Translations under genes and position numbers: made by a program
DNA from: a virus
Lineage: Duplodnaviria > Heunggongvirae > Uroviricota > Caudoviricetes
Reading direction: 5' to 3' (one strand)
Length of the DNA: 42,486 bases
Virus record (IMG/VR): IMGVR_UViG_2541047683_000004
Coordinates: 1-42,486 of that record
Notes under the pieces: model-generated
The model's input: the letters and a program-made list of their open reading frames with translations, nothing else
Told to the model about the DNA's origin: nothing
Database searches by the model: none
Part shown: positions 3,688 to 36,857 of the stretch, one piece after another
How the letters are laid out: every line of letters begins with the position of its first letter
Position numbering within the stretch: the stretch's first letter is position 1

Positions 3688-5817
3688 CTATTCCTCAATA
3701 CCTAACCTGCTTGAAACCTCCGGCATAACAGTAACCTGAAGGGTTTTTGATGAATCTGTGTTTTTAATTGCTATGCTGATATTGTCAGAAGTGCTGTTAT
3801 TGTTTGACACTGTTATAGAGTTTGCATCCACCCCGAGTTTCGAATAAGCATCAGCAAAACTAAGACCAACACTTCCACCAACAACTCTATATGAACCATC
3901 AATTCTGAATGACGATATATTGTTATTGCTAACATCTCTAATTAGAACCCATATAGAAACACCCCTGAAAACAAGGCTTGCCCCTGATGGTATTTGAAGT
4001 GATACAGTTCCTGTGGAACCGGGGGGGATACTGCCAGTATATTTAGTTCCGTGCAGATATTTCCCCGGTAGATCTAAATACGATGTGTCTGGATGTAATA
4101 AATTATGTATATGTCTGCTATCTATGCTTCCAGACAGAACCATAGAATCATTGCCATATTCAATTATCCTTCCACCATCGTTACTTATTGTAAGTAATCC
4201 TTTGTTTCCTTTATTATTTCTAACAGTTATATCAGAAGAATCCAGGCGGACAATTGATATATTTTTTTCTGATCCATGACAATAATTTGATGAAATTTCA
4301 CCTGTAACAAGTGACGTACATAAAATGTCTGAACTTCCATCACTGTCGCCAGTAATAGTGTTGCAGGAAATTAATGCACCATATACCAGGCCTGTTGGAG
4401 ATTCTCCAAATTGCTCTATAGTAATCCGTTTTGTGGTATTTGCTGATATGGTTATATTATGAACATCGTCAGTTTGCGATGTTACTTTGATCCTTGATGA
4501 AACTGTATTTCCAGAAATAGTAACATTACTTGTATCATCCACCCATAAATATGACGAAAACGTATTACATGATATGACTGAGTTACTCACCATTGAGTTC
4601 TCAAGCTCACATGAACCATAGCTATTGTTATGGTCATAATTTCCTATAATCCTTACAAATCCATTCTGGTTAATGAAGTTGTATGATGTTGCATTTTGTC
4701 CGCCATAAGTTGAGTTATGTGATGTTTCAGCATTTGTAACGCCTATATGTTGAAAATGACCGGCATTTACAGAATCAGGAGCAACTGATGTACACCCTAT
4801 TACTTTTGTGTTTTTGACAATTCTTGAATTAGGGTCATTCTCCAAATAATAGTTTTTTGCAACAAATGCCGTAGAGTAAAAGAAACCTTCAAATCTATTA
4901 AATAAAATCTGAATATCGTCATAATCTCTTTGGTCTTCATTTGCATAGCAATAAAATGCTCTTGAAGACTCGGAGTAATCCTTGCATTTCTGAACGCCAG
5001 ATAAAAGCGATCGGATTCTGCTAGATTTTATTCTAAATCCGTTGTGAATTAACGTTGCATCACCAACTAATGTTATTGGCTTAAACAATTCAACCTTATC
5101 AAAAACAAATTCACCACCATAAAATCCAAGTATAGCCCCTTCTGGTGCTGCATTAATAGCATTTTGAATTGCTACAGTATCATCTGTTATGCCGTCTCCT
5201 TTTGCACCAAAATCACGAACACTAATGGTGTCTCTCATCTTATCCTGGAACGTTCGGTACACAGCCCCAGAACCATACTGAATAAACCAACCAAAACCAC
5301 CAACAACCCCGGCGATTGCAGCATCGACATAATTACGCATTGAGCGATTATTTACAGCATCCTGCTCAAGTGATGGATCTGCAAGGTTAGAAATTCTGTT
5401 TTGCTTTGCATCGTAATATTTTGCAAGCAAAGATGGTTTCATCAATGCACGTCTGAACCACCCAAAACATTGCTGGATCAGCATCGTCAGGTAGTCAAAG
5501 GCATCTTCATGCACTTCGGGAAAAAACTTTCCCTGATTGCGAAGGTCTGTCTCCTGTACTACATCAAGCACACGATCTATCGTAATTCGCCATCCAGTAG
5601 CAAGCGGAGACGGAAGAACCACAGAACCGCCACTATAAGTGCCCGCCCCAGTTACCGTATAACCGGTATCCAGAACCAATTCTGTTACGTTCCCGTTCAG
5701 GTCAGACACCTGAACAACCAGGTCTGATTTTCTGAAAATTCGAAAAGTATACGGAAACGATGTCGTAACGCCGTTACCTGTGTATTCGTTGTGGTCAACT
5801 TCGGTTGAGACCGTCAT
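3688..5817 (-). CDS. Tailspike with right-handed beta-helix (pectate-lyase-like) polysaccharide depolymerase domain
   Basis: 709 aa; N-terminal particle-binding domain; motif VRDFGAKGDGITDDTVAIQNAI typical of pectate-lyase-3 superfamily; AT-rich, Ser/Asn/Thr-rich repeats. Confidence 0.8.
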   Translation of the reverse strand: MTVSTEVDHNEYTGNGVTTSFPYTFRIFRKSDLVVQVSDLNGNVTELVLDTGYTVTGAGTYSGGSVVLPSPLATGWRITIDRVLDVVQETDLRNQGKFFPEVHEDAFDYLTMLIQQCFGWFRRALMKPSLLAKYYDAKQNRISNLADPSLEQDAVNNRSMRNYVDAAIAGVVGGFGWFIQYGSGAVYRTFQDKMRDTISVRDFGAKGDGITDDTVAIQNAINAAPEGAILGFYGGEFVFDKVELFKPITLVGDATLIHNGFRIKSSRIRSLLSGVQKCKDYSESSRAFYCYANEDQRDYDDIQILFNRFEGFFYSTAFVAKNYYLENDPNSRIVKNTKVIGCTSVAPDSVNAGHFQHIGVTNAETSHNSTYGGQNATSYNFINQNGFVRIIGNYDHNNSYGSCELENSMVSNSVISCNTFSSYLWVDDTSNVTISGNTVSSRIKVTSQTDDVHNITISANTTKRITIEQFGESPTGLVYGALISCNTITGDSDGSSDILCTSLVTGEISSNYCHGSEKNISIVRLDSSDITVRNNKGNKGLLTISNDGGRIIEYGNDSMVLSGSIDSRHIHNLLHPDTSYLDLPGKYLHGTKYTGSIPPGSTGTVSLQIPSGASLVFRGVSIWVLIRDVSNNNISSFRIDGSYRVVGGSVGLSFADAYSKLGVDANSITVSNNNSTSDNISIAIKNTDSSKTLQVTVMPEVSSRLGIEE

Positions 5818-5920: not shown

Positions 5921-5937
5921 ATTACCTTTCAGGTAAT
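5921..5937. promoter_or_regulatory. Operator-like palindrome ATTACC-N5-GGTAAT (copy 1)
   Basis: Perfect 17-bp palindrome attacctttcaggtaat in intergenic DNA between tailspike start and LexA-box gene. Confidence 0.6.
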
Positions 5938-5991: not shown

Positions 5992-6013
5992 TTATTGCAT
6001 GGAGAAGATTAAG

Positions 6014-6271
6014 ATGCAGCAGTATCACTATCCACTGGAAGACGGATTTACCGAAAGGATTCACACGCCGGGAGGCGTCAGGTCACTGGTGGAGGGATCG
6101 CACTTGATGAAATTACTCCGGGATCTCGATAAGGATGGATTTAATGTCGATGGCCCACTTGCCGAACTGACTGCACTGATTAACTACGTCACCAGCTCAC
6201 AGATGTCTATGCGGGATCTGCAAACACATCTCGACTATTGTGCCGAACAATTACGAAAACAAACCCGGTAA
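6014..6271 (+). CDS. Small SOS-controlled antirepressor-like protein (stand-alone copy of the shared C-terminal module)
   Basis: 85 aa; GGAGAAG RBS; aligns to the C-terminal 70 aa of the two larger antirepressor-like proteins (LM.LL..L..DG..V.G..AELT ... RD.QTH..Y). Confidence 0.6.
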   Translation: MQQYHYPLEDGFTERIHTPGGVRSLVEGSHLMKLLRDLDKDGFNVDGPLAELTALINYVTSSQMSMRDLQTHLDYCAEQLRKQTR

Positions 6272-6293: not shown

Positions 6294-7022
6294 CTATCGT
6301 TTCGCTTTGTGCTCGTCCCAGCACGTTTTGCACCATGCCATTAAGCCGTCCGCATTTTGATTATTAGGGTAAAAGCTGGTCCGTTTTCTGCGGACATTAC
6401 AAATTGGGCACCACTTCATATGGCGTGTATTCTTTGGGCCATCGAGACACCTTGCACACCACTTAGTCAATCCATCTGGATTTTTTGACGATTTCCGGAA
6501 TTTGTCATATGGAAGGTTTATTCTGCATCGCAAACACTGCTTGCGGCCACTTGAAACTCTGTTAGCTGATTCTTCTTTTGACGGCGATACAGAAGGTATT
6601 CTTGCTGGCTCTGATACTGCCTGAGGTGCTTTTTTAGATGACTGAGACGATATGTCATCACCAGGGAATCTTCCATGATATGCCGGACGCGTTGACACTC
6701 CAGGTGGAAGCTCAGCTGTAAACGGCTTTGGCTGAATCAGTTGCCTCTCTTTTGCTAACTCCTGCTGTTTATAATATGTCTGGATTACCGCACTATCATA
6801 AGCAGGAGGTGCGGAAATATTAGGCGCATTACCTCCAGTTTTTTGAAACTGAGTAGAGGTGTGTTCTATCACCTGTGTACGATTAATCGTTATCTCCCCA
6901 TCTTCGGTCTTTATCGTTTTGTTATGATTAACGACCGTACGATCAGAGATCTTAGTCTTGTTCTGGTTGATAACGTAAATAATCACCGTAACCACACCAA
7001 CAACTATCCAGAAAACTTCCAT
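6294..7022 (-). CDS. Membrane-anchored protein with C-terminal double zinc-ribbon (2 x CxxC...WCxxC)
   Basis: N-terminal TM MEVFWIVVGVVTVIIYV, Pro/Ser-rich linker, two Cys4 units; GAGGAAAA RBS; 5-prime cassette identical to gene 10832. Confidence 0.6.
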   Translation of the reverse strand: MEVFWIVVGVVTVIIYVINQNKTKISDRTVVNHNKTIKTEDGEITINRTQVIEHTSTQFQKTGGNAPNISAPPAYDSAVIQTYYKQQELAKERQLIQPKPFTAELPPGVSTRPAYHGRFPGDDISSQSSKKAPQAVSEPARIPSVSPSKEESANRVSSGRKQCLRCRINLPYDKFRKSSKNPDGLTKWCARCLDGPKNTRHMKWCPICNVRRKRTSFYPNNQNADGLMAWCKTCWDEHKAKR

Positions 7023-7041
7023 TGCTTTTCCTCACAATAAC

Positions 7042-7058
7042 ATTACCTTAAAGGTAAT
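7042..7058. promoter_or_regulatory. Operator-like palindrome (copy 2)
   Basis: attaccttaaaggtaat, 14 nt upstream of RBS of gene 6294-7022. Confidence 0.6.
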
Positions 7059-7134
7059 ATCTTGCTTTCAGGTGATCAAGCATTAAACGCAACCAACCAA
7101 ATACGGTTGATTTTAATATTTCTTCGCGTTTATC

Positions 7135-7151
7135 ATTACCTTTGCGGTAAA
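7135..7151. promoter_or_regulatory. Operator-like palindrome (copy 3) abutting putative -35 TTTACA of leader promoter
   Basis: attacctttgcggtaaa; followed by TTTACA-N17-CATAGT. Confidence 0.55.
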
Positions 7152-7186
7152 TTTACATCGCACTCCTCTTGTGCCATAGTAATCGG

Positions 7187-7262
7187 GCACTGGCAAAATC
7201 CAGTGCCGGGATTGGCGTCCCGGATTACTAAAAGGCGCATTCACCGCGCAAGCGGTTTTTTT
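7187..7262 (+). ncRNA. Candidate small structured RNA (two hairpins plus intrinsic terminator) in antirepressor leader A; c4-like riboregulator candidate
   Basis: Hairpins gcactgg/ccagtgc and ccggg/cccgg, terminator accgc-gcaa-gcggt-T7; conserved with compensatory changes in inverted copy at 10096-10174. Confidence 0.4.
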
Positions 7263-7419
7263 ATGCGTATAGCACGGCCACATTCGTATTATGGTGGGCT
7301 GTGTGGGGGCACCGAAAGGTGCGCCGGGTCCTTTTAGCCGGTTACGCCAACCCTGCACAGTTCACCACCAACCGATTGGCGTCGGTAGTGGTGATTAACC
7401 AGACTAAAAGGTAACCACT

Positions 7420-8115
7420 ATGACAGCTACAAAAAGCACGTCCATTTTTTCTTTCGAATCCCAAGCCGATATACGGGTAATCGTCATTAATGGTGAGCCA
7501 TGGTTTATCGCTTCAGATGTTTGTCGGGCTATAGGCATAGCAAACCATCGAGATGCTGTTCGAAAACTTGATGATGATGAGAAGGGCGTCGCTTCAACCG
7601 ACACCCCTGGCGGTGAGCAAGAATCGATCATCATCTCCGAGTCAGGCCTCTACACACTGATCCTCCGCTGCCGCGACGCAGTGACACCAGGCACTATCCC
7701 CTACCGCTTTCGCAAATGGGTTACAGGTGAGGTTCTTCCTCAGATCCGCCGCACCGGAAGTTACATTAAAAACTCGCTCCCGCAGGAAGAACGCATAAAG
7801 ATGGTTGCCGACCAGGTAGCCAACGCCACGGCGTCAGCAGTAATGCAGGCGATGAAGATAGAGAACAAAACCTACAGCGCCCCGCTGAAGCCCGGCTACC
7901 GCAGTCTGATTCATTCGCCGTCTGGTGTTCTCGGCCTGACGGAGAACTCATTGCTGATGAATCTGCTGAATCAGTTGCAGGACGACGGGCATGATGTATC
8001 GGGCGCGGCGGCGGAACTGACCACCATGTTCTGCTACATCGTCGGTGTGAGCAAATGCCTGCGTGATATCCAGACCCACGCGGAGTACATCAACGACAAG
8101 GCAGGGTTCTTCTGA
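7420..8115 (+). CDS. Antirepressor-like protein, Bro-N type N-terminal domain plus shared C-terminal module
   Basis: N-terminal SIFSFESQADIRVIVINGEPWFIASDVCRAIGI resembles Bro-N; C-terminal 80 aa nearly identical to gene 9289-9939. Confidence 0.65.
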   Translation: MTATKSTSIFSFESQADIRVIVINGEPWFIASDVCRAIGIANHRDAVRKLDDDEKGVASTDTPGGEQESIIISESGLYTLILRCRDAVTPGTIPYRFRKWVTGEVLPQIRRTGSYIKNSLPQEERIKMVADQVANATASAVMQAMKIENKTYSAPLKPGYRSLIHSPSGVLGLTENSLLMNLLNQLQDDGHDVSGAAAELTTMFCYIVGVSKCLRDIQTHAEYINDKAGFF

Positions 8116-8159
8116 CGGGCGGTGGCACAGGGATGTGCCTTTAAATAATTCTGTACAGA

Positions 8160-8188
8160 TTGCAGACTGTGGGTGAATAGCGTACTAT
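8160..8188 (+). promoter_or_regulatory. Sigma70-like promoter TTGCAG-N17-TACTAT for cassette 8263-9216
   Basis: Hexamers with 17-bp spacer; operator palindrome overlaps -10 and start site. Confidence 0.5.
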
Positions 8189-8203
8189 TACCTCAAGGGT
8201 AAA
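8187..8203. promoter_or_regulatory. Operator-like palindrome (copy 4)
   Basis: attacctcaagggtaaa overlapping -10/+1 of cassette promoter. Confidence 0.55.
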
Positions 8204-8262
8204 CGGATTGGTTTCATTTTTATTAATCCGTGTAATGAACTTATGAGATATGAGGTAATGTC

Positions 8263-8442
8263 ATGCGAAACGAAAAATTGCAGATGCGTAGAGCGCAAGC
8301 TGCCGCAAGACGTTCTTTCAATGGAAGCGTAGAGTACGTAAAAGTTACTATGACAAAAGATCACGCAAGTCGCGTATCCCGCGCTTTCTTTGATTCTCGT
8401 AACAATAAGGAAAATTATGAGTTCGTCTGCGTCGCAGAATGA
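8263..8442 (+). CDS. Small basic protein (59 aa), candidate antitoxin or regulator
   Basis: GAGGT RBS 6 nt upstream of ATG; overlaps start of downstream gene by 26 nt; not in supplied ORF track because under 60 aa. Confidence 0.4.
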   Translation: MRNEKLQMRRAQAAARRSFNGSVEYVKVTMTKDHASRVSRAFFDSRNNKENYEFVCVAE

Positions 8443-8962
8443 TAAAAATCAAATTGTCAGATATAAGGGTCGAGTGTTGCATACGCAAAATTTCTCGGCC
8501 CTTTGTGCATCTGATCTTGAGCTGAAGAAAGTATCTGATGCCTTTACCCAGTATTGGAAAACGGGATACCATCCATCTCTTGGTAAAGATGCTGCATTTG
8601 CTCGTCCGACAGAAATGCTTAAACTAAATGTCAGGCATACTCATGTCGATAACCAAGACTATATTCCAGAAGATAGTGATAAAAAACACACTGGTAAAAA
8701 ATCATCTTGGGATGCATGGAAAAATATAGCGTCTGTACAAGTAAAATGCATACCAACAAGTGATTGCTTTTTAGTTTATTCGGTAAATCACAATCGTGAT
8801 GCGCTGGTTATGTTTTTTGTTGACGCAGATGCTCACAACATAACTGAGCAAGAAGAGTTTAAAGAGGAAGCAATCACTATCAGTTATCAATTCTTTGAGA
8901 AAACAAAAACAGAACCAATGCCTTTAGAAGAAGATCTTTTTTCTGATAAATGGAAGGAATAG
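8417..8962 (+). CDS. AT-rich accessory protein, possible YafO-like toxin (tentative)
   Basis: AAGGAAA RBS; motif pattern F..Y...G..P..GKD, RHTHV, FLVYS, DADAH resembles recalled YafO-family pattern; visibly AT-rich versus flanks. Confidence 0.4.
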   Translation: MSSSASQNDKNQIVRYKGRVLHTQNFSALCASDLELKKVSDAFTQYWKTGYHPSLGKDAAFARPTEMLKLNVRHTHVDNQDYIPEDSDKKHTGKKSSWDAWKNIASVQVKCIPTSDCFLVYSVNHNRDALVMFFVDADAHNITEQEEFKEEAITISYQFFEKTKTEPMPLEEDLFSDKWKE

Positions 8963-8982
8963 CCCGCAGCGCGGGCTTTTTT
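8963..8982 (+). terminator. Rho-independent terminator
   Basis: cccgc-agc-gcggg followed by T6. Confidence 0.6.
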
Positions 8983-9054
8983 GTGGACGAAACAAAAGTC
9001 AGTGCTACACTCATTGACGCCACATTGAGGTGGCTTATAGATGGAAATTTCACA

Positions 9055-9216
9055 ATGAAAAAAGCATTTGCTGCACTGTTCGTTTTATTGTCTCTGGTAG
9101 CTTCAACTCAGGCCTTTGCCGGTCGTTGTCAGCACGACAGCGATACTGCTGCTGACGGCTCCCGCTGCGGTGGGCGTTCTGCGGATTCCCGTCCGGGCGG
9201 CGGTGGCATTCGTTAA
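9055..9216 (+). CDS. Small secreted Gly/Arg-rich peptide (53 aa) with signal peptide
   Basis: MKKAFAALFVLLSLVASTQAFA signal then 31-aa Cys-containing tail; weak RBS. Confidence 0.35.
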   Translation: MKKAFAALFVLLSLVASTQAFAGRCQHDSDTAADGSRCGGRSADSRPGGGGIR

Positions 9217-9239
9217 AAACAAGGCCGCGAAAGCGGCCT
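9214..9239 (-). terminator. Intrinsic terminator for antirepressor gene B
   Basis: aggccgc-gaaa-gcggcct hairpin followed on minus strand by T-run. Confidence 0.55.
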
Positions 9240-9251
9240 GTGACATGTCAC
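9240..9251. repeat. Perfect 12-bp palindrome GTGACATGTCAC (copy 1 of 3)
   Basis: Exact palindrome between convergent genes. Confidence 0.6.
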
Positions 9252-9288
9252 GATAGTTTCGTTTTGCACATCCCTGTGCCGCCGCCCG

Positions 9289-9939
9289 TCAGAAGAACCC
9301 TGCCTTGTCGTTGATGTACTCCGCGTGGGTCTGGATATCACGCAGGCATTTACTCACACCGACGATGTAGCAGAACATGGTGGTCAGCTCCGCCGCCGCG
9401 CCCGATACATCGTGCCCGTCTTCCTGTAACTGGTTCAGCAGATTCATCAGCAGTGAGTTTTCCGTCAGGCCGAGAACACCAGACGGAGAATGAATCAGAC
9501 TGCGGTAGCCGGGCTTCAATGGGGCACTGTATTCTTTTTTGTCTTCCAGCTTGATCGCCTCCATAATGGCGGGCATGAAGCCTGACAAGACCTTCTCCAC
9601 TTTTGTTTCTTGTTGTCTTAAACGTTTCTCGCATTCAATGAAGTAGCGTCGTACCTGACGACCTTTTTCGTTACGCTCGACCATCGCCAGCTCTTTGGCT
9701 GTATCGAGGGTTAGGTGGTAGTCTTTTGCAGGACGGCCTCTGCCTATTTTTTCCCGAACTTGGGAAATAATCATAAAGTCTTGATTTTCAACGAAGCCAT
9801 ATTCAGCAATTCGTTCGACAATCCACGAAGCAAATCGCTTACCCACATCGAGGAAAGTGTGTAAATCACGGGCATTAACGAGAAGAGCGGTTTCGTTGGA
9901 TATAGTGCCGTTGAATACGGGGATGAGTTGAGCGTTCAT
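9289..9939 (-). CDS. Antirepressor-like protein, AntA/Rha-type N-terminal domain plus shared C-terminal module
   Basis: N-terminal LIPVFNGTISNETALLVNARDLHTFLDVGKRFASWIVERIAEYGFVENQDF resembles AntA-type domain; C-terminal 80 aa matches gene 7420-8115; GGAG RBS. Confidence 0.65.
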   Translation of the reverse strand: MNAQLIPVFNGTISNETALLVNARDLHTFLDVGKRFASWIVERIAEYGFVENQDFMIISQVREKIGRGRPAKDYHLTLDTAKELAMVERNEKGRQVRRYFIECEKRLRQQETKVEKVLSGFMPAIMEAIKLEDKKEYSAPLKPGYRSLIHSPSGVLGLTENSLLMNLLNQLQEDGHDVSGAAAELTTMFCYIVGVSKCLRDIQTHAEYINDKAGFF

Positions 9940-10095
9940 GATGGCGTCTCCACTTAGCGAATTACATCACCACCGCTGAGACCAATCAGATGGTGGTGAA
10001 CTGAACGGAGTTGGTCTTACCGGCCTAAGTGGTACCGGCGTCCTTTCGGACCCCCATTCAGCCCACCATAATTCTGGCATGACTGTGCTATACGC

Positions 10096-10174
10096 ATAAA
10101 AAAACCACGTCTGGCGTGGTATGCGCCACTTAGTAATCCGGGAGACCAATCCCGGCACTGGATTTTGCCAGTGC
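10096..10174 (-). ncRNA. Candidate small structured RNA in antirepressor leader B (inverted paralog of 7187-7262)
   Basis: Same hairpin-hairpin-terminator architecture; terminator stem differs in sequence but preserves pairing (ccacg-ccaga-cgtgg). Confidence 0.4.
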
Positions 10175-10209
10175 CTGATTACTATGGCACAAGAGGAATG
10201 CGATGTAAA

Positions 10210-10226
10210 TTTACCGCAAAGGTAAT
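10210..10226. promoter_or_regulatory. Operator-like palindrome (copy 5)
   Basis: tttaccgcaaaggtaat, inverted counterpart of copy 3. Confidence 0.55.
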
Positions 10227-10372
10227 GATAGACACAGACAAACATTAAAATCAACCATATTTGGTTAATGCGTGTAAAAGAGCCAGCAGCGAGAAATTGT
10301 GCCGCGACGTAAAATAACGAGCATCTGCTGGCTTACAACCAGCGATGTTTCAAATTTGTCACTACTATCAAC

Positions 10373-10771
10373 GTGCCATTCCACGGCGCAGAGCTTTATG
10401 TTGTCAATCACAACGGCGAACCGTATACCCCAATGAAACCTATCGTTGAGGGAATGGGGCTAGACTGGAAATCTCAACATAAGAAGATTTCTCAACGCTT
10501 CTCGAAGGGTATGGTGGAAATCACCATACCTTCTGCCGGTGGGGTGCAAGCCATGATTTGTATGGCTTTACGAAAATTGGCAGCTTGGTTGAACAGCATC
10601 AGCCCTAACAAAGTCCGCCCTGAAATCCGCGACAAGGTAATCCAGTATCAGGAAGAGTGTGACGATGTGCTCTACGAGTACTGGACTAAAGGCCATGTGG
10701 TTAACCCACGCAAAGCTAAAAAGGCGTTGCCGGGTAAAATCACTACTGAGCAACAGGAGGTATACACTTAA
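10373..10771 (+). CDS. Antirepressor N-terminal-domain-like protein, start codon unclear (possibly truncated remnant)
   Basis: Segment LYVVNHNGEPYTPMKPIVEGMGLDWKSQ resembles P22-antirepressor-type N-domain by recollection; only GTG or internal ATG starts, no good RBS. Confidence 0.35.
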   Translation: MPFHGAELYVVNHNGEPYTPMKPIVEGMGLDWKSQHKKISQRFSKGMVEITIPSAGGVQAMICMALRKLAAWLNSISPNKVRPEIRDKVIQYQEECDDVLYEYWTKGHVVNPRKAKKALPGKITTEQQEVYT

Positions 10772-10795
10772 CACTTGATCACATTAGCACAAAAC

Positions 10796-10812
10796 ATTAC
10801 CTTTAAGGTAAT
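10796..10812. promoter_or_regulatory. Operator-like palindrome (copy 6)
   Basis: attacctttaaggtaat 14 nt upstream of RBS of gene 10832; part of 49-bp block identical to that at 7020-7060. Confidence 0.6.
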
Positions 10813-10831
10813 GTTATTGTGAGGAAAAGCA

Positions 10832-11359
10832 ATGGAAGTTTTCTTAATCATCGTCGGCATCGTGATTATTAATTTTGTTTTTTTATTTATTGCAAAAAAA
10901 CAAAAAAGTAACGATATGCATGTTTCTACAACTGATGATCTTACCTTTGTAGAGCATGCACTGAATGTATCAGGATATAAACTCACCCCATACGGAGCTG
11001 GTGTATCACTCATGTCTTTAAGTAACGGTTTTTCAAAAGAAGAAACATTTTCACATATAGCTTTGATGGCTCTTTCTCAACACGCCAAAGTCGCAGGTAG
11101 TGACGCAATTGAGCTTAGTAAAGTTAGCATTCGTGCGATGTCGATAGCTGAAAACTTAACTAAATTATTCAGGAAAGGTCTTATTCGATCAGAAATATAT
11201 AAAAATGATTTGAATGCTATCATGGCTGTCAGCACAATTAATGAAAACCAAGAGGATTGGATTTCCATAGTTCTGGAAAGCAATAGCACATCTAACAAGG
11301 ATACTATTGCTTTGCCGATAAGTGCAGAAGCTTCTTTAGAAGCCATAAACAGCCATTGA
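10832..11359 (+). CDS. AT-rich membrane-anchored accessory protein (moron), function unknown
   Basis: N-terminal TM MEVFLIIVGIVIINFVFLFIA then soluble domain; visibly low GC; shares promoter-operator-RBS-TM cassette with gene 6294-7022. Confidence 0.55.
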   Translation: MEVFLIIVGIVIINFVFLFIAKKQKSNDMHVSTTDDLTFVEHALNVSGYKLTPYGAGVSLMSLSNGFSKEETFSHIALMALSQHAKVAGSDAIELSKVSIRAMSIAENLTKLFRKGLIRSEIYKNDLNAIMAVSTINENQEDWISIVLESNSTSNKDTIALPISAEASLEAINSH

Positions 11360-29779: not shown

Positions 29780-29791
29780 GTGACATGTCAC
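29780..29791. repeat. Perfect 12-bp palindrome GTGACATGTCAC (copy 3 of 3)
   Basis: Exact palindrome just upstream of RBS of gene 29558-29770. Confidence 0.6.
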
Positions 29792-33505: not shown

Positions 33506-33850
33506 TCAGAACTCTTCGATGTTCCAGCCACCACCTGCTTTCTTTGGCTTAACCGTTACCCCGATGATTCGGAACGGATACTGATCTGCGGCGACTTTGG
33601 TTTTCACCCTGGCGTCGTCGGTCCAGAAACCTTTCACTTCGTGCAGTTCCATCTCGCCGGTGGCGAGCATCACAGCAAAATCGGGCGTATAGAACGTGTT
33701 GTCAGCTAACCGCAACTTGATACCCTCGAATCGATACCAGGCGATTTCCCCTGCACGTTTACGCTGCTCAAGGTGCTGGCAATACGCAGATTCTGTTTTG
33801 TTCATCTGGCCTGTTTTGAGTCGACCAAGAGCCTGTATCTGTTTTCTCAT
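33506..33850 (-). CDS. Small phage protein (114 aa), DUF1064-like (tentative)
   Basis: Operator copy abuts its ATG. Confidence 0.45.
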   Translation of the reverse strand: MRKQIQALGRLKTGQMNKTESAYCQHLEQRKRAGEIAWYRFEGIKLRLADNTFYTPDFAVMLATGEMELHEVKGFWTDDARVKTKVAADQYPFRIIGVTVKPKKAGGGWNIEEF

Positions 33851-33852
33851 GA

Positions 33853-33869
33853 TTTACCTCTAAGGTAAT
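33853..33869. promoter_or_regulatory. Operator-like palindrome (copy 8)
   Basis: tttacctctaaggtaat. Confidence 0.55.
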
Positions 33870-36154: not shown

Positions 36155-36201
36155 TCACCCATAAGGTAACAAAAATCAAGGATAGTTACCTATGGGGTGC
36201 A

Positions 36202-36272: not shown

Positions 36273-36857
36273 ATGAAAAGTATCCAGGACGTCCGCAGGC
36301 AAAATCTCAACGACTTGATCGACCGTGAATTCAATGGTGTTCAGACGCGGATGGCAGAAAAACTTGGAACTCAGGCAAATCTGGTAAACCGCTGGGCTCT
36401 TGGCAAGAAGGTTATCGGCGACCAGGTTGCGCGAAAAATTGAAGCTGCCGCCAATAAACCCCGTAACTGGCTTGATATCGATCGCTCGCTTTCTCAGGAA
36501 GGTTTTCAGCCTGTCGGCCCAAGCGACATTGGTCAGCTGGCAGCTCACAACCTGGAACGCTGGATGAGCGAAAGCCGCGACCTTTCAACACAGGGAAAAC
36601 TTCACCGCGCATCCGGCGTAGCCCAGGTGACAATCAGCCGCCTGTTAAACAATGAGGTCAGCGTTTCCATTTCCACCCTGGAGAATGTTGCATCCGCATT
36701 CGGGCGTCACGGCTATGAATTACTGATTCACCCGCACGACCCTGCGACCATCAACTATGATCGCTCGCGCTACGCATTGTTACCCGAAACCGAGAAAGCA
36801 AAGATCGAAAGTTACATTGAATTTGTCATCAACCAGAACGAAAAAAACAAACAATAA
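36273..36857 (+). CDS. Phage repressor candidate with two tandem XRE-type HTH domains
   Basis: Two helix-turn-helix-like segments (residues about 20-45 and 105-130); monocistronic between operator clusters; terminator downstream. Confidence 0.6.
   Translation: MKSIQDVRRQNLNDLIDREFNGVQTRMAEKLGTQANLVNRWALGKKVIGDQVARKIEAAANKPRNWLDIDRSLSQEGFQPVGPSDIGQLAAHNLERWMSESRDLSTQGKLHRASGVAQVTISRLLNNEVSVSISTLENVASAFGRHGYELLIHPHDPATINYDRSRYALLPETEKAKIESYIEFVINQNEKNKQ

Follow-up and report, generated by a model that had tools for sequence, protein, structure and literature searches.

The sieA gene of phage P22 neighbors the tailspike gene and is found between the genes for ejection proteins and the immI/ant region. 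The early protein p16.7 of phage phi29 has an N-terminal anchor and is non-essential. SieA acts on DNA injection through ejection proteins, has three predicted helices, is expressed from the prophage and occurs in several sequence types (PMC10883804), while p16.7 is an integral membrane protein that binds terminal protein and single-stranded DNA and assists in bringing phage DNA to the membrane (PMC4974454). Here we describe two genes, A and B, in a stretch of 42,486 nt (IMG/VR virus record IMGVR_UViG_2541047683_000004, positions 1 to 42,486; hereafter, the window) that is a Uetakevirus (epsilon15/phiV10/TL-2011b-like) prophage of E. coli. Escherichia phage TL-2011b matches the window at 98% across two thirds of its length, and phiV10, ZX5 and further Uetakevirus (epsilon15-like) phages match it in parts. 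Genes A and B form the outer edges of an anti-repressor (immI-like) region, A facing the tailspike gene and B the ejection-protein gene, and the stretch between these two landmarks is a near-palindrome (Table 1). With about even confidence, we read A and B as dispensable cargo genes that are swapped on a repressor-gated, early membrane-anchor module and that have an early accessory function at the inner membrane. Our confidence as to the role itself is low; the likeliest one is accessory and exerted early at the cytoplasmic face of the membrane, where A and B would keep out the DNA of a second phage or take over a process of the host envelope.

Genes A and B start within the same 49 bp. An exact-match search of the window found this 49-mer once on each strand, which confirms the inverted identity noticed when the sequence alone was read; that reading had placed the left copy at 7020-7060, about 10 bases away from its true position, 7010-7058. 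It had also described the shared segment as an operator, a ribosome-binding site and first codons, and this holds, as the 49 bp include a perfect palindrome, TTACCTTTAAGGTAA, the Shine-Dalgarno (SD) sequence GAGG and, 7 nt after it, the ATG at which the open reading frames (ORFs) of A and B both begin (MEVF...). The repeat finder placed the 49-mer within a 90-nt inverted repeat of 83% identity (6997-7086 / 10768-10857). Upstream of the 49 bp, the likeness of A to B is limited to CTTGATCAC at the -35 position; downstream, similarity is found at the protein level, in the next 6-7 hydrophobic residues (IVVGVV / IIVGIV), whose codons differ between the two genes at nearly all third positions. A core 30-mer was present in 50 independent IMG/VR contigs, each time ahead of an A-type ORF of 242 amino acids (aa) or a B-type ORF of 175 aa, apart from two shortened A-type copies, one of 59 aa and one truncated by a contig end. 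An exact scan of IMG/VR with this 30-mer revealed no effector bodies behind the cassette beyond the A and B types, and the break points of the module were identical in more than 60 copies, whether or not the other gene was present. Since the 30-mer occurs in 50 contigs with the same ORF types and break points, the repeat is real, and chance origin or an assembly artefact was rejected. The perfect identity of the two copies appears best explained by recent homologous recombination or gene conversion between the modules, and it is probably kept intact in part by purifying selection on the operator and SD. In itself, the 49-bp identity is an ordinary joint of mosaic phages, marking the exact unit exchanged.

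The palindrome has the form TTACC-N5-GGTAA, and 13 perfect copies plus three more with one mismatch occur in the window, where 0.77 would be expected at up to one mismatch. The copies at 7043 and 10797 are both perfect and both end 20 nt ahead of the respective ATG. Operator sites precede the 90-aa gene on the tailspike side, A, B, both isrK-C4-ant operons, the YafO-like pair and tRNA-Arg(UCU), and others, at 36155 (one mismatch), 36203, 36915 and 36977, flank the repressor gene. This gene is located between a divergent 76-aa gene and the rightward early operon, with operator groups at early promoters on both sides, and its product is 100% identical to the phiV10/ZX5 repressor. When the ZX5 repressor was overexpressed, lytic genes were no longer transcribed, free phage was no longer produced and the lytic cycle was blocked (PMC9782041). 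From the distribution of sites, we infer that the palindrome is the operator of the Uetakevirus immunity repressor. At A and B, as expected of members of this repressor's regulon, the palindrome overlaps the core promoter, and binding is predicted. The proposal from sequence alone that A and B are under repressor control therefore seems sound as a regulatory interpretation, given a palindrome that is multi-copy and stands at the early promoters flanking the repressor gene.

The promoters predicted for A and B share their hexamers and a 17-nt spacer (Table 1), and in both cases the -10, TACCTT, doubles as the left half of the operator. The 20 nt from the end of the operator to the ATG are too few to accommodate a promoter. 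Comparable elements were seen in relatives, namely TTGACC-17-TACCTT in two Citrobacter/Salmonella-type phages (L093, L104), TTGAAC-17-TACCTT with the same operator class in Serratia prophages (L062/L064), TTGATT-17-TACCTT in a metagenomic relative (L146) and TTGAAT-17-TAACCT with a TAACC-N5-GGTTA palindrome in Providencia (L059); the window itself has TTGACA-17-TACCTT at 26416, upstream of the tRNA. Thus, the order of promoter, operator, ~20 nt and ATG is kept before A- and B-type genes across genera despite diverged spacer sequences. It is because the -35 and the 17-nt spacing are conserved across diverged copies, and not because of hexamer strength, that we call TTGAnn-17-TACCTT a promoter. 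Repressor bound there would block both the -10 and the start of transcription, and A and B are therefore expected to be silent in a stable lysogen. Judging from their position, they would be off in the lysogen and come on jointly with the anti-repressor operons, once the phage infects or the prophage is induced.

Operator sites and a second palindrome were also observed elsewhere in the window. A copy, TTACCTCTAAGGTAA, is located at 33854-33868, 3 nt from the start codon of a Holliday-junction-resolvase-like gene (33506-33850, minus strand), and because of this short distance the SD sequence of that gene falls inside the operator. In the interval 26416-26829 (plus strand), the tRNA-Arg(UCU) gene lies about 320 bp 3' of a TTGACA-17-TACCTT promoter with a perfect operator; this would place a phage tRNA for a rare codon under repressor control. 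The second palindrome, GTGACATGTCAC, is perfect at 9240-9251, 27329-27340 and 29780-29791 and has one mismatch at 24365-24376, with 0.09 expected. It was found in 74 of 149 fetched loci, mostly directly after a gene end or terminator, and in L093, L104 and L146 it stands immediately upstream of the -35 of an A/B-type promoter.

Gene B occupies the slot beside the ejection-protein gene, and a B-type gene was found there both in the window and in L146, whose ejection protein (a match to phrog_342, "internal virion protein") is only 58% identical to the window's. The L146 B-type protein, P0044, is 39% identical to B, sits in the same slot behind the same promoter-operator layout and has an A-like start, MEIFWVVVGV. 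In Serratia prophages and Citrobacter/Salmonella-type IMG/VR contigs, it is an A-type gene that adjoins the ejection-protein gene, i.e., in the position of B in the window. Two B relatives of 47-48% identity from outside this phage type have a longer N-terminus (MNIPQERF...) and unrelated upstream DNA without the operator. Since both bodies share slot and layout, whereas B relatives outside lack operator and anchor start, the 5' module (promoter, operator, SD and first anchor codons) appears to belong to the slot, with bodies exchanged on it. Profile-profile alignment of the A and B families extended over residues 1-18 only, at a probability of 92%, a score that hydrophobic helices can inflate. 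The idea of an anchor with a swappable domain, as put forward in the sequence-only reading, is thus retained in part: A and B types share a slot and P0044 has the A-like start, but there are only two body types and no broad effector family.

Among long IMG/VR loci with a near-identical ejection protein, 9 of 17 had neither gene, 4 had only B, 3 had only A and 1 had both. In complete E. coli genomes, A was present in 129 of 5426 and B in 6 of 5426. Because they are often absent from loci with a near-identical ejection protein and are rare in E. coli, A and B are considered dispensable. In sister prophages, either nothing occupies the left slot or a second YafO-like pair does, with an imperfect operator of its own. 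Cargo of the central region also varies among relatives (YafO pairs, DUF4760, DUF2335, a 210-aa protein), and the slot on the ejection-gene side is often occupied by another small membrane protein. The neighboring cargo (YafO-like toxin pairs, DUF4760, DUF2335) suggests genes of the competition type. As to the toxin pairs themselves, the operator of the YafO-like pair in the window begins at the last base of its -10 (TTGCAG-17-TACTAT, then TTACC...), and sister prophage L005 (2051-3038, minus strand) has a different YafO-like pair with an imperfect operator in place of gene A. Toxin-antitoxin cargo, too, appears to be under immunity-repressor control.

Protein A matched phrog_6762 over its full length (residues 1-242 against profile positions 1-242, E 2.6e-149), a family of unassigned function. 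Its 33 homologues are spread across Enterobacterales, with identities of 40-63% in Superficieibacter, Enterobacter, Citrobacter, Salmonella, Serratia, Providencia, Pectobacterium and Buttiauxella. Alignment of the family showed ~55 conserved N-terminal residues, comprising a membrane helix and the motif DRTVV...TIKTEDGEI.I.RTQVV, then a variable linker rich in Pro, Gln and Ala, and an almost invariant C-terminus with eight cysteines; these form four CxxC pairs at 163-234 that are invariant in the family. The N-terminus holds the sole strongly hydrophobic segment of the protein (Kyte-Doolittle 19-residue mean 2.2), preceded by only Met-Glu and followed by K/R-rich residues. Zinc-cysteine domains are typically cytoplasmic, and this together with the positive-inside rule places the C-terminus of A in the cytoplasm, so that A is predicted to be a single-pass inner-membrane protein with its N-terminus out and its C-terminus in. 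In an AlphaFold model, residues 2-22 form a helix and residues 29-52 a conserved hairpin (moderate confidence), the stretch from about 54 to 155 is disordered, and tandem zinc ribbons, with a predicted local distance difference test (pLDDT) score above 90, occupy 158-242. The best PDB fold match of the zinc module (Foldseek) was the Stc1 tandem zinc finger 2LUY (probability 0.87, E 5e-3, with a low TM-score). Against the Pfam Stc1 family (PF12898), A scored 21.6 bits, below the gathering cut-off of 24.8, and 14 of 17 A-family members matched it at E <= 0.01 (best 1.2e-4). In a viral structure library, 34 models matched A at E <= 1e-3, mostly zinc-finger parts of HNH / endonuclease VII proteins; PHROG matches likewise covered zinc parts of endonuclease VII, HNH and Lar-like proteins, as well as primase families, and a weak sequence match to the N-terminus of PacI endonuclease agrees with a nuclease-type zinc module. 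No nuclease core (HNH beta-beta-alpha-metal or EndoVII) was found, however: A has no Pfam nuclease domain, its PHROG matches cover the zinc ribbons only, and the chain stops at residue 242, right behind the second ribbon. A would bind zinc and nucleic acid. Since it has a nuclease-type zinc module without a nuclease, it is most likely a binder of nucleic acid or of a protein partner at the membrane. In A, then, we see a clean, conserved case of a nuclease-less zinc-finger module with predicted tethering to the membrane. Our full-text literature search found no description of a membrane-anchored zinc-ribbon exclusion protein, nor of a zinc module joined to a membrane anchor via a disordered tether.

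Protein B likewise matched a family of unassigned function, phrog_21690, over its full length (residues 1-175 against profile positions 1-175, E 7.5e-104), and PHROG and Pfam yielded nothing else for it. The distant relatives P0044, P0048, P0051 and P0055 match phrog_21690 as well; P0043 and P0044 were not located in IMG/VR, nor P0044 in GTDB genomes. The sole hydrophobic segment of B is again N-terminal (Kyte-Doolittle 19-residue mean 3.2; membrane helix about 2-23) and is followed by a K/R cluster and a roughly 130-residue, all-helical domain, so B too is predicted to be a single-pass inner-membrane protein with its N-terminus out and its C-terminus in. Gene B has 35% G+C compared with 48% for the window. 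Close relatives are few (E. coli, E. albertii and the two proteins at 47-48% identity with the differing N-terminus), but a profile search of 1.84 billion representatives returned 123 relatives, in which the domain (~120-130 residues) occurs alone, duplicated, or behind varied soluble or membrane-spanning N-terminal regions. All recorded names of these relatives are "hypothetical protein", and none of 10 tested contained a Pfam domain. A PDB fold search with the model of B (pLDDT 55) returned noise (best E 1.3). One relative lies beside P4-type sid/delta/psu genes in a mobile element. In a Proteus prophage (L148, 5216-7620), a membrane-anchored relative has the repressor gene on one side and, on the other, an anti-repressor module (isrK-C4-ASH-ORF6N) with the operator TTAACC-N5-GGTAA, and members of the B family thus adjoin isrK-C4 modules in two unrelated phage types. 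What had been said of the proteins from their sequences alone agrees with these results, namely that both have a similar N-terminal anchor and a cytoplasmic domain (predicted here as well), that A carries two zinc-ribbon units and that the domain of B is AT-rich and unrelated.

On the proposed mechanism, the shared 49 bp would make up the 3' portion of a compact early-promoter module. This module would be a property of the genome slot and reads TTGAnn, 17 nt, TACCTT, ~20 nt, GAGG, ATG and anchor codons (ME-V/I-F...). The repressor would keep both genes off in the stable lysogen, and they would be released jointly with the two isrK-C4-anti-repressor operons, right after infection or upon induction. 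Protein A would then hold its basic tandem zinc ribbons at the inner membrane on a disordered tether of ~100 residues, B would hold an uncharacterised helical domain on a similar anchor, and the two would act early, as a positional analogue of P22 sieA with different timing.

Several points weigh against this proposal. Repressor binding to the palindrome is deduced from where the sites lie, the -10 TACCTT agrees with consensus at only 3 of 6 positions, and a generic sigma-70 promoter scan of the window did not call the promoters of A and B. A single operator may also be leaky, with some expression in the lysogen. The Buttiauxella A homologue (L061), which lies outside the phage type, has a strong, operator-free promoter (TTGACG-18-TATTAT), and the Proteus B relative is directly after the prophage repressor gene, a spot that often holds lysogen-expressed exclusion genes; early-only expression is thus not universal for the A and B families. 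With regard to activity, the model of B, built from 6 sequences, is all-helical but poor, and Stc1/LIM-type tandem zinc fingers can mediate protein-protein contacts instead of DNA binding.

The sequence-only reading had called an anchor plus swappable domain under repressor control typical of superinfection-exclusion or abortive-infection proteins. This label gained no support: defence-protein models (PADLOC-DB 2.0) matched none of A, B and six neighboring proteins at E <= 0.01, neither A nor B matched any PHROG or Pfam family to which a role in exclusion or abortive infection is assigned, and the operator over the -10 makes the implied timing probably wrong. Classical proteins of this kind, expressed from the prophage to protect the lysogen and using the anchor to present an effector domain, rank second among the explanations but are unlikely. 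Their case draws on the position of A and B between an ejection-protein gene and an anti-repressor region, as for P22 sieA, on their accessory distribution and low G+C, on B relatives beside P4-type sid/delta/psu genes and directly 3' of the Proteus repressor gene, and on the toxin-antitoxin pairs among the neighboring cargo. However, an operator that covers the -10 and start, and is conserved across genera, predicts repression in the lysogen, the database searches are negative, and A and B have one membrane helix compared with three in SieA. Since the predicted timing is that of an early gene and not of a lysogen-expressed one, we favor an early accessory function. Early timing would also suit host-takeover proteins of the "kil" type, such as lambda Kil, P1 Icd and SPO1 gp56, which would act on the envelope or the division machinery of the host while the phage grows lytically or becomes established. 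Predicted repressor-gated expression adjoining anti-repressor operons, predicted membrane anchoring and dispensability would all agree with such a role, as would the precedent of P1, where ant and the gene for the division inhibitor, icd, share an operon controlled by C4. Yet A and B have no PHROG or Pfam similarity to known division or envelope inhibitors, and the zinc-ribbon module type of A elsewhere accompanies nucleases, and we consider a role of this "kil" type quite unlikely.

We think it very unlikely that the task of A is to hold DNA or replication machinery of its own phage at the inner membrane. Its anchor, its long flexible tether, a basic zinc-ribbon module related to HNH/EndoVII DNA-targeting modules and predicted early expression would fit such a role, for which phi29 p16.7 provides a precedent (PMC4974454). 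However, A is absent from most closely related prophages and so cannot be a core replication factor, B with its unrelated domain replaces A in the same slot, and both genes are far from the replication genes at about 33-35.5 kb. The perfect 49-bp inverted repeats, together with inner inverted repeats of 168 nt (86%) and 279 nt (94%), could instead serve programmed inversion of the intervening 3.7-kb segment, and the anti-repressor N-terminal domains have been exchanged between the window and a related locus (L003), so the arms do recombine. Even so, this explanation is extremely unlikely, since no invertase gene lies in or adjoining the region, inversion would leave both genes and promoters unchanged, and genomes with only A or only B retain the same module. 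Finally, the swapped-cargo reading can be extended to a bolder form, in which A and B would be alternative "warheads" on a shared anchor that exclude competitors early, under the repressor, at the cytoplasmic mouth of the DNA-ejection conduit. The tethered zinc ribbons of A would seize incoming DNA or ejection proteins, the system would co-evolve with the ejection gene, and all cargo of the hot spot would be wired to the operator and fire when immunity collapses or at infection; as a whole, this version is quite unlikely, about as much so as the "kil"-type role.

Table 1. Positions of genes A and B, their control elements and the surrounding features in the window.
Feature	Position	Strand	Basis or remark
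Tailspike gene	3688-5817	-	
Gene A, 242 aa	6294-7022	-	ORF; phrog_6762
Left copy of the 49-bp module (operator, SD GAGG, ATG, first 4 codons)	7010-7058	-	Exact match
Operator of gene A, TTACCTTAAAGGTAA	7043-7057		Palindrome search
Predicted promoter of gene A	-35 7074-7079; -10 7051-7056	-	-35 TTGATC, spacer 17, -10 TACCTT (AAGGTA as written)
Left anti-repressor module, divergent from gene A	7136-8115	+	Rfam above gathering score, Pfam Bro-N, promoter scan
Parts of the left module	Operator 7136-7150; isrK 7187-7262; C4 7287-7372; Bro-N anti-repressor 7420-8115	+	
Operator, 59-aa gene and YafO-like toxin	8188-8962	+	
53-aa secreted peptide (predicted)	9055-9216	+	
Right anti-repressor module, inverted	9289-10225	-	Rfam, Pfam, repeat finder
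Parts of the right module	Operator 10211-10225; isrK 10098-10174; C4 9989-10073; AntA anti-repressor 9289-9939	-	
P22-type ant fragment, 5'-truncated, N-terminal domain only	10373-10771	+	Pfam P22_AR_N, E 9e-45
Predicted promoter of gene B	10775-10803	+	-35 TTGATC 10775-10780, 17-nt spacer, -10 TACCTT 10798-10803 inside operator
Right copy of the 49-bp module	10796-10844	+	Exact match
Operator of gene B, TTACCTTTAAGGTAA	10797-10811		Ends 20 nt before ATG
Gene B, 175 aa	10832-11359	+	ORF; phrog_21690
Ejection / internal virion protein gene, 1006 aa	11381-14401	-	ORF; convergent with gene B, defines the right slot
Immunity repressor gene, 194-aa helix-turn-helix protein	36273-36857	+	

Between A and B, Rfam models identified isrK at 77.9 and 67.7 bits (cut-off 50) and C4 at 77.7 and 61.2 bits (cut-off 45), followed by the Bro-N and AntA proteins. 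The two inverted isrK + C4 + anti-repressor modules differ in their N-terminal domains (Bro-N versus AntA) and have the C-terminal domain in common, the DNA arms for which (7860-8138 and 9266-9544) are 94% complementary. When L003 (3653-6113) was compared with the window (7420-9939), the AntA and Bro-N N-terminal domains had swapped sides; the loci were otherwise collinear and the orientation of the central cargo was kept. This swap fits recombination between nested inverted repeats, that is, the isrK-C4 arms and the anti-repressor C-terminal arms. In TL-2011b, a P22-type arc-ant unit replaces the right module. The ant remnant of the window is 97.5% identical to CUS-3 ant; it lacks the C-terminal two thirds and also, like the full-length Ant of TL-2011b, the first 22 codons. 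It separates the operator of the right module from the promoter of gene B, while on the left 93 bp is all that lies between their counterparts. The conserved 90-aa gene on the tailspike side (5999-6271, plus strand; operator 5922-5936) is of the epsilon15 gp19 / phiV10 gp24 type and aligns with the C-terminal domain common to all the anti-repressors (phrog_1760 positions 175-225). Its product resembles a free-standing copy of that domain and may act as a minimal anti-repressor or compete with the larger ones. The 53-aa ORF has a signal-peptide-like N-terminus and a Gly/Cys-containing tail, belongs to phrog_14503 ("membrane associated protein") and is kept between two anti-repressor genes in many relatives, flanked by terminators. 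Control of the shared A/B leader by small RNA was considered and rejected: its duplex energies with both C4 and both isrK RNAs were no different from those of shuffled controls (z +0.2 to -1.8), in an assay of low power, the positive-control C4 / ant-leader pairs having scored no better (z -1.6, -1.1).

If the regulatory reading is true, phages of this group place their accessory membrane proteins, and also their toxin pairs, under control of the immunity repressor and do not express them from the prophage. Such repressor-gated timing would depart from the textbook picture of "moron" genes, and the functions would be exerted during infection or induction, whether by excluding competitors in lytic growth, in host takeover or in response to loss of immunity. 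That a hot spot should wire all its cargo, toxin pairs included, to the immunity operator would be mildly unusual. It is unusual that one anchor-plus-promoter module carries two unrelated, uncharacterised, predicted cytoplasmic domains, and in B this includes a widespread domain without annotation.

Compared with described systems, A and B resemble P22 SieA in being small, dispensable, predicted inner-membrane proteins with a similar genome position. They differ in having one hydrophobic segment instead of three predicted helices and no detectable SieA sequence similarity, and while SieA is made from the prophage, the predicted promoters of A and B are covered by the putative immunity operator. 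The operons that they flank are known RNA-controlled modules of isrK, C4 and an anti-repressor with a repressor operator, as in P1 immI (c4-icd-ant) and Gifsy-1 isrK-anrP; however, A and B lie outside the described modules, as separate divergent units with their own promoter and operator. With Stc1 (PF12898, 2LUY) and the zinc modules of viral HNH-EndoVII proteins, A shares two consecutive CxxC...CxxC units, but it lacks a nuclease domain, its Pfam score is below the cut-off and its module is placed on a tethered membrane anchor. From phi29 p16.7, A is set apart by an unrelated DNA-binding fold, the Gram-positive host and protein-primed replication of phi29, and the lack of detectable homology. 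Finally, the shared module is like the boundary ("linker") sequences of mosaic phages, in that a short, conserved regulatory sequence has unrelated flanking bodies and identical break points across genomes, but here the joint takes in the first codons, giving proteins with a common N-terminus.

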